Below are positions 47,860 to 49,600 of a stretch of DNA of 64,000 nt, in pieces (the first letter of the stretch is position 1; each line of letters begins with the position of its first letter). This DNA is from Escherichia coli (lineage in GTDB: Bacteria > Pseudomonadota > Gammaproteobacteria > Enterobacterales > Enterobacteriaceae). Position numbers and translations under genes: made by a program. The notes beneath the pieces are model-generated. The model made no database searches, was not told the origin of the DNA, and worked only from the letters and a program-made list of their open reading frames with translations. Location: assembly GCF_003790525.1 (NCBI RefSeq), contig NZ_CP033635.1, one strand, 5' to 3'.

Positions 47860-47875
47860 CTTTTTCGCCTCTGAT

Positions 47876-49600
47876 TTATACGAATCGAACGCTAAACCGC
47901 TGCCTGCGCCGATACGCATAAACATCTTCCACATGCCCTTCACGAATGCGGTTTTGTAGTGCGCGCCAGTAATCAGCGCGGAACAGGTCGGCGTGCATCT
48001 CTTCAAACAGCGGACCAATACGCGGGTCGGCACATAGCCAGTGGCGAAACTCTTCCGGGAAAACATCGCCCGGCGAGACGCTGTACCACGGTTCGCTGGC
48101 AAGTTCGTCCTCCGGGTAGCGCGGCGGTGGGATGTCGCGGAAGTTCACTTCCGTCATGTAGCAAATTTCGTCGTAATCATAAAACACCACACGCCCGTGA
48201 CGGGTGACACCAAAGTTTTTAAACAGCATGTCGCCAGGGAAAATGTTAGCGGCGGCAAGCTGGCGAATAGCGTTACCGTACTCTTCAATGGCGTCGCGCA
48301 GCTGCTGACCTTCCACTTGTTCCAGCCAGATATTGAGCGGCACCATCCGCCGCTCGATATAAAGATGGCGAATCACAATTTGTTCGCCGAGATCGGTGAT
48401 TTTTTCCGCTGCTTCCTGGAGCAGTAATTCCATTAATGCCGGGGAAATATGCCGCTTCTCCAGCACAAAGTTTTCAAACTCCTGGGTGTCCGCCATTCGG
48501 CCCACACGATCGTGCTCTTTCACCAGTTGGTAGCAGGCACAAACGTGAGCGGCAGACATCTCTTTCTGCGGCGCGAACCTGTCTTTGATGACTTTGAAGA
48601 CCCGATCAAAACCCGGCAACGTAAACACCAGCATCACCATGCCACGAATACCCGGCGCTTCAATGAACTGCTCATTACAGCCCTGTAGATAAACGAGATA
48701 TTCGCGGTAGCTTTCGGTTTTAGCGTGCTTCTGGCAGCCGATAGCCATATACAATTCAGCGGTGGTTTTACCTGGCAGAATTTCCCGTAGCCACTCGACC
48801 AGCGCTGCGGGCAGCGGTGCATAAACCATAAAATAAGAACGCGCAAAGCCAAAAACAATGCTCGCTTCGGCGGTCGTCGTCAGGCAAGTATCAATAAATA
48901 ACTCGCCGTCGTCCGTCTGGTGGATCGGCAGCAAAAATGGCAATGTGCCGGAAGGCGTGATCAGTTTGCCCACCAGCCAGGCGGCTTTATTGCGGTAAAA
49001 CAGTTCGTTCGCCACCTGTAAATGACTTTCCGCGAGGTTGTCTGTCCCCAGCGTTTCCGTCAGATGGCGAACGATGTAATGAATGTCACGGCTTTTATTC
49101 TGCCAGCGCAGACGCAACGGCAGGTCGCTGATAACACGCATCAGCAGAGATTCCCAGCCGTGATCGGAGTGAAAGTCTTTCGCCAGCGGGCGCGGAATGG
49201 TACGAAAACGGCGCTCTGGCTGGGAGCTAAAGATAAAAAGCCGCTCGGGAGTAAGCGAGCGGTGGTCAAATAACCGACAGTACACGGAGTTAAAAAAGCT
49301 CTCCGCAATCTCGAAGCGCGGGTAATCCGGCAACAGCCGCGTGTAATGCTCTTTGACGCGCAGTAAAAATGCCGCGTCCGTGCTTTGGCCGTTGGTAATG
49401 CAGCGCAGTTGCTCCACCACCAGACCCACGTGATGATCGTAAAGATGGATACGGTTTTTCATCGCCTGCTGGACAGCATGCCAGTCGGCCTGTTCGAAAC
49501 GCTGCTGCGCCCCGGAAGTCACTTCGAGGAATCGACCATACTGAGCGTCGAAGCCTTGCAGAATGGTTTGTGCAATCAGTAATTCCAGGCCACGCGGCAT
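47876..49600 (-). CDS. aceK: isocitrate dehydrogenase kinase/phosphatase
   Basis: 574 aa; [24 protein letters not shown]; the C-terminus ends ...RQRFSVRFV, differing from the K-12 end as I remember it. Confidence 0.93.

Follow-up and report, generated by a model that had tools for sequence, protein, structure and literature searches.

The analysed sequence is a 64-kb stretch of Escherichia coli DNA from contig NZ_CP033635.1 (assembly GCF_003790525.1), hereafter the window, in which iclR and aceK converge tail to tail. The iclR gene, which encodes the repressor of the glyoxylate bypass operon, occupies positions 47035-47859 on the plus strand, specifies 274 amino acids beginning with MVAPIPAK and ends with a TGA codon at 47857-47859. 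The aceK gene, which closes the aceBAK operon, encodes isocitrate dehydrogenase kinase/phosphatase; it occupies 47876-49600 on the minus strand and specifies 574 amino acids ending in RFSVRFV, and its TAA stop at 47878-47876 reads as TTA on the plus strand. Both coding sequences were taken from the open reading frame list and from the RefSeq annotation of the identical sequence in SMS-3-5. AceK scores 939 bits against the NCBIfam equivalog NF002804 (cut-off 488), with residues 5-572 covered, and aligns over residues 1-573 to PDB chains 3lc6 and 3eps, which are 578 amino acids long. Between the two stop codons lie only 16 bp, 47860-47875, with the sequence CTTTTTCGCCTCTGAT; this spacing, given in the initial annotation, is exact in the sequence itself, in the open reading frame list and in the RefSeq annotation of SMS-3-5.

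The corresponding region of K-12 (NC_000913.3, b4016-b4018) has the same flanking genes in the same orientation, but reads iclR, a 316-bp intergenic region, arpA and aceK. There arpA is codirectional with iclR and convergent with aceK, and its 3' end overlaps the 3' end of aceK by 32 nt. By blastn and manual alignment, the similarity between K-12 and the window breaks 7 nt past the iclR stop (47866|47867) and again within the final aceK codons (47885|47886), the latter as had been proposed from the sequence of the window; it resumes at 47886. Between these points the window holds 19 bp of its own (47867-47885, GCCTCTGATTTATACGAAT), spanning the aceK stop and the last two sense codons, and K-12, which lacks the 16-bp junction, has 2,486 bp in their place: arpA plus the 316 bp upstream of it. 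The aceK-side breakpoint is uncertain by about 20 nt, as five differences between K-12 and the window are packed into the last 16 shared nucleotides, out of 58 differences in aceK overall. Divergence from K-12 amounts to 3.4% in aceK and 1.2% in iclR; the IclR proteins are identical, and the AceK proteins align through residue 572 with scattered substitutions. The GC content of the K-12-only segment is 37%, against 53-54% in the aceK and iclR flanks. The 2,486 bp yield zero blastn matches in the window, and a tblastn search with ArpA over the whole 64 kb returns a best E-value of 4.2 and reveals no arpA-like coding sequence, so that the reported absence of arpA between aceK and iclR is borne out. 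Terminal repeats or a target duplication were sought at the boundaries of the insert in K-12, where the only candidate is a 6-of-7 inverted match (CTTTTTT/GAAAAAG) that we judge to be due to chance. A hairpin 3' of iclR in K-12, GGGCAGAGGCAATATTCTGCCC, lies within the inserted DNA and is a feature of K-12.

The two forms of the locus also differ in the C-terminus of AceK. In K-12 the protein has 578 residues and ends in RQRFSVRYGEMLF (RFSVRYGEMLF), as stated in the initial annotation, compared with 574 residues and RFSVRFV in the window. The C-terminus of the window protein is thus different and shorter, as described, but its designation as altered does not hold: the RFV ending is also present in E. 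albertii, and the K-12 ending appears to be the derived one. Beyond the R[FY] position the AceK tail is hypervariable across genera. Many genera share the long consensus R[FY]Gx[LMV][KQ]QAG before the stop; short tails (RFV, RFA, RFT or RFG followed by the stop) are found in Escherichia, some Citrobacter and one further genus; and extensions derived from REP elements occur in Salmonella, Citrobacter and Klebsiella pneumoniae. The crystallised AceK chain 4p69 ends at residue 571, so RFV and RYGEMLF are unlikely to differ in function, and the tail difference is probably neutral.

Absence of arpA is the Clermont quadruplex marker of phylogroups B2 and F (PMC10525238; scheme table in PMC10894499), in agreement with the interpretation first given to this junction, and the window presents the marker genotype itself, with no difference. 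Over 18 kb surrounding the junction, the window shows 100% identity to SMS-3-5, and at least seven further complete genomes share this sequence. Phylogeny, ClermonTyping and EzClermont all assign SMS-3-5 to phylogroup F (PMC7656184), and this published typing together with the 18-kb identity places the window in phylogroup F. We searched for the typing primers (sequences from PMC7656184 and PMC5322314) with a tolerance of up to four substitutions. The AceK.f primer has an exact site at 48255-48274 on the minus strand; ArpA1.r has no site in the 64-kb window at this tolerance, and neither do the two yjaA primers. Accordingly, no AceK.f/ArpA1.r amplicon is produced in silico from the window, whereas K-12, in which both sites are present, yields 400 bp. 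The yjaA gene itself is absent: the 518 bp that separate rrfE from the 3' end of yjaB in K-12 have 121 bp in their place (55774-55894). The quadruplex profile of phylogroup F is '- + - -', that is, arpA-negative, chuA-positive, yjaA-negative and TspE4.C2-negative (PMC10894499); the arpA and yjaA status of the window fits this profile, and the chuA and TspE4.C2 loci are not part of the 64 kb. The arpA-free junction is therefore already known, as a published typing marker in a known phylogroup F lineage, and the presence or absence of arpA at this place has been in routine use for typing E. coli since 2013; the window comes from a sequenced and typed lineage.

Among 5,425 complete E. coli genomes, the junction is contiguous in 1,315 and split in 4,110 (9,535 places, equal to 1,315 + 2 x 4,110). 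A match to arpA is found in 4,109 of the same genomes, at no more than two places per genome; the near-equality of 4,110 and 4,109 indicates that the genomes with a contiguous junction and those carrying arpA are complementary sets, and by these counts arpA is probably absent from the rest of this genome too. Besides B2 and F, phylogroup G is arpA-negative. The arpA-positive genomes, among those listed, all break at the same positions of the window, and four other arpA-less genomes, with an overall identity of 95-97% to the window, have exactly its spacer and terminal aceK codons. In AF22 and N44, arpA-free and the most diverged of the genomes fetched (about 95% identity), IclR ends in LSYGGIR rather than LAYGGMR, owing to two non-synonymous changes in the last codons, equivalent to window positions 47839 and 47853.

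To place the two forms in a wider context, we scanned species-representative genomes for AceK, which gave 80 loci from Enterobacteriaceae; E. fergusonii and the cryptic clades are outside this set. No ArpA homolog adjoins aceK in any of the 80 (E <= 1e-5), and iclR lies convergently downstream of aceK in all 76 loci where this could be assessed. E. albertii (NBRC 107761) closely resembles the window: aceK and iclR stand tail to tail without arpA, and AceK ends in RFSVRFV. Its spacer is orthologous and 15 bp long, atcagtggcgaaaag compared with atcagaggcgaaaaag in the window, with one fewer A and one substitution, and its iclR stop is TAA instead of TGA. The flanks of the E. albertii junction diverge from E. 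coli by 7.6-8.2% (7.6% in aceK). Of the 19 window bases that K-12 lacks, 16 match E. albertii, with the stop at the same position and the same tail. In the published scheme, the cryptic clades II-V are arpA-negative (PMC10894499), and the lineage nearest to E. coli proper, its sister clade I, reportedly carries arpA (PMC10525238). A 476-bp band in clades III-V that could be taken for arpA is a chuA artefact, these clades being arpA-negative (PMC10894499).

These comparisons favour, with a probability of about 0.85, the view that the window carries the ancestral arpA-free junction, kept in phylogroup F and shared with B2, and that the K-12 type is derived by insertion. The argument for K-12 as the derived state comes from the match to E. 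albertii, the absence of arpA from all 80 loci and the 37% GC of the insert, and the same observations speak against the original reading of arpA as missing, in the sense of a loss relative to K-12. In the ancestral form, the end of aceBAK and iclR would have stood tail to tail, 16 bp apart, with the short RFV tail on AceK. A low-GC segment of 2.49 kb, comprising arpA and its 316-bp upstream region and carried today by about three quarters of E. coli, would later have entered the junction in one event. The insertion would have replaced about 19 bp, giving AceK its six-residue tail YGEMLF, and would have left the arpA frame ending within antisense aceK sequence. The coordinates, breakpoints, population frequencies, outgroup state and nature of arpA are direct results, whereas two steps of this history are inferred. 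One is that the insertion happened a single time, for which it speaks that two divergent arpA alleles occupy an identical site and both overlap aceK by 32 nt; the other is that B2 and F retained the ancestral allele by vertical descent. What changes is thus the direction of the difference: the arpA-free junction and the short AceK tail would be ancestral and the K-12 reference would bear an insertion, and the wording 'arpA is missing' or 'AceK is altered' for B2 and F strains should be reversed.

The arpA-free junction is a structural difference between genomes and not a statistical pattern, and chance is not at issue. Nor can it be a product of sequencing or assembly error, since 1,315 complete genomes share the identical junction, as do strains that were sequenced independently. 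A deletion, in which a K-12-like ancestor lost arpA, with the 16-bp junction and the short AceK tail as its scar, is the reading that K-12 as the usual reference invites, and the presence of arpA in 4,109 of 5,425 genomes and in clade I, as reported, would agree with it. A deletion, however, cannot recreate 19 bp that K-12 lacks, 16 of them as in E. albertii, and for this reason we regard the window allele as the descendant of an arpA-free ancestor. The lack of arpA beside aceK in 80 other species, the 37% GC of the arpA segment and the invariance of the junction among lineages without arpA whose remaining sequence differs by up to 5% all weigh against a loss as well, and leave it hardly credible.

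The arpA-positive status reported for clade I also bears on a different history. With clade I counted as a carrier, an early gain of arpA, followed by arpA-free replacement in the ancestor of B2 and F, would be admissible under strict parsimony on the species tree. Under such a scenario arpA was present in the ancestor shared with clade I, and the ancestor of B2 and F, possibly also of G, regained the arpA-free allele by homologous recombination over aceK and iclR, the donor being an arpA-free relative. Phylogroups are documented to have exchanged arpA alleles horizontally (PMC6113867; EzClermont, PMC7656184), and the conserved aceK and iclR flanks would ease allele replacement. Yet the flanks of the window diverge from K-12 by 3.4% and 1.2%, which is ordinary within the species and far from the 7.6-8.2% seen against E. 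albertii, and they show no long imported tract; moreover, with clades II-V arpA-negative, a late gain with spread to clade I is equally parsimonious. An early gain followed by replacement is therefore unlikely, though less so than a deletion.

The product of arpA itself matches the Pfam family Toxin_15 (ShET2 enterotoxin N-terminal region; E = 1.3e-96) and additionally contains ankyrin repeats. RefSeq names its product EspL4 or 'ShET2/EspL2 family type III secretion system effector toxin'; for ArpA, no model exists in NCBIfam. Plasmid relatives from Shigella (ShET2/EspL2) share about 24% identity and end near ArpA residue 630, and because they are this distant and end there, the native C-terminus of ArpA cannot be defined from them. 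A homolog search for a donor of arpA returned only proteins named as E. coli, the most divergent at 88% identity. Of the two divergent arpA alleles mentioned above, one stands at 88% protein identity and the other has an internal deletion. The allele with the internal deletion (4001-5731 of locus L089) encodes about 545-576 amino acids and is annotated as a ShET2/EspL2 family effector. This is the allele of about half of the arpA-positive genomes (roughly 2,100 of 4,109), in which K-12 arpA (2802-4988 of the K-12 locus, L001) is matched over only 72% of its length, in two pieces. Low GC, an effector-like family and lineage-restricted presence point to arpA as horizontally acquired cargo.

The insertion may not have been a simple one. 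We compared the 3' end of aceK between K-12 (L001 2790-2833) and the window (47876-47905). The K-12 tail RYGEM, unlike RFV, fits the long-tail consensus of distant genera (RYGEL, RYGAM), and the two arpA-positive alleles are identical in aceK through TAT GGG GAG AT and then diverge. The fit to the long-tail consensus, together with the five clustered differences next to the breakpoint, suggests that the arpA-positive allele may have imported an aceK 3' end of different ancestry; the search found no donor for this end.

Stop-to-stop distances in the 76 assessable Enterobacteriaceae loci run from -47 to +1,675 bp. They do not exceed 20 bp in 23 loci and 57 bp in 40; in 12 species the distance is -4, the two stops sharing TTAA or TTAG. 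Cedecea, Buttiauxella, Shimwellia and Siccibacter resemble the window in that aceK and iclR converge with no room for a separate terminator, but here AceK ends in the long form R[FY]Gx[LV]KQAG, and TTAA or TTAG serves both stops; the short Escherichia tail ends 16 bp earlier than the long tail of these stop-overlapping pairs. Other loci contain inserts between the two genes, among them L010, L018, L022, L027, L048, L057 and L062. Klebsiella, Raoultella, Kluyvera, Kosakonia and Phytobacter carry a gene for a 137-aa ASCH-domain protein; L022 and L027 carry a Phd/ParE toxin-antitoxin pair and L018 a TacA/GNAT pair; L048 has lipid-synthesis genes for a cytidylyltransferase and an acyltransferase; L062 encodes a 338-aa protein without a Pfam match; and Salmonella and Citrobacter harbour REP-like elements. 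From its sequence content, the aceK-iclR junction looks like a recurrent insertion point, with different cargo in different genera, and this 3'-to-3' junction illustrates how well convergent gene ends tolerate insertions. One locus of the set deserves caution: a contig labelled Edwardsiella ictaluri ATCC 33202 (L020) encodes AceK and IclR that are 90% and 92% identical to those of E. coli, as close as the proteins of Citrobacter and Kluyvera. This is surprising for Edwardsiella and suggests a mislabelled or contaminating contig.

Neither a consensus scan nor folding detects an intrinsic terminator, that is, a compact G+C-rich hairpin followed by a U-run, at the junction of the window. The minimum-energy folds reach -21.7 kcal/mol on the plus strand (z = 0.03) and -15.3 kcal/mol on the minus strand (z = -0.90), and the junction folds as a whole (z = 0.03, -0.90 and -0.34) show no extra stability over shuffled controls on either strand. 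The scan returns one weak match, at 47837-47858 on the plus strand, with seven pairs, three of them G-C, an 8-nt loop and the tail ACTTTTTCGC. The assertion that the junction has no terminator hairpin is consequently upheld by the folds, which are no better than shuffles, and needs qualification for this single weak match. A weak, imperfect long-range stem can be drawn at 47817-47872, across the 3' end of iclR and the spacer, with arms at about 47817-47831 and 47859-47872, and E. albertii has a similar one. We considered this stem, the only candidate of the kind, as a two-way terminator and rejected it: it is no better than shuffles in the window, and its z of -1.75 in E. albertii is only marginal. 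In an Atlantibacter species (L035 6225-6300), a strong hairpin, GCCGCCTCC-TGAA-CAGGAGGCGG, takes in the aceK stop, and a T-run comes after it inside the 19-bp gap. The hairpin has a folding energy of -27.9 kcal/mol (z = -3.28); by its predicted structure, it qualifies as a genuine terminator at the aceK/iclR junction, unlike anything in Escherichia.

The terminator-poor 16-bp junction had been proposed to link aceBAK and iclR through antisense read-through; with this, or with polymerase collision, the glyoxylate shunt would be regulated differently in arpA-free strains and in K-12. The proposal draws on the lack of a canonical intrinsic terminator, with folds that match shuffles, on the age and wide distribution of the arrangement, in which the stops of 12 species share TTAA, and on the 2.5 kb that the arpA segment sets between aceK and iclR in K-12. 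Against it, spacing is not conserved: it varies between -47 and +1,675 bp, and many genera have insertions of unrelated genes, of toxin-antitoxin pairs or of REP elements; such free variation among genera argues against a constrained coupling device. A tight convergent aceK/iclR pair is the norm in Enterobacteriaceae, neither created by the absence of arpA nor specific to a strain, and aceK of K-12 likewise meets a convergent gene, arpA, with a 32-nt overlap. Some relatives possess a strong terminator, such as the Atlantibacter hairpin (z = -3.28), and Rho-dependent termination at the junction is possible. Expression of aceK is very weak relative to aceB and aceA, and for that reason the flux of read-through should be small. 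A full-text literature search for convergent or antisense regulation of aceK and iclR found no relevant report. Coupling through the junction is accordingly quite improbable: antisense coupling amounts to speculation, and no regulatory role of the junction has been demonstrated beyond ending two transcription units. A more specific version, a feed-forward switch in which read-through from induced aceBAK hampers iclR across the ancestral junction and the later insertion of arpA insulated the two, is slightly more doubtful still; if true, B2, F and G strains would differ from K-12-type strains in the induction dynamics of the glyoxylate shunt.

Two further features were noted in and around these genes. 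K-12 encodes the small RNA AceK-int (b4830) inside the aceK coding region (L001 1380-1464, RefSeq annotation). In the window, about 1,256 bp at 54350-55605, inside yjaB, are without a counterpart in K-12, and no more than 5 bp of K-12 sequence are duplicated at their ends. Its minus-strand open reading frames at 55222-55569 and 54356-55102 fall by their matches into the HTH_Tnp_1 transposase and rve integrase-core families, and the segment is an IS3-family insertion sequence interrupting yjaB.
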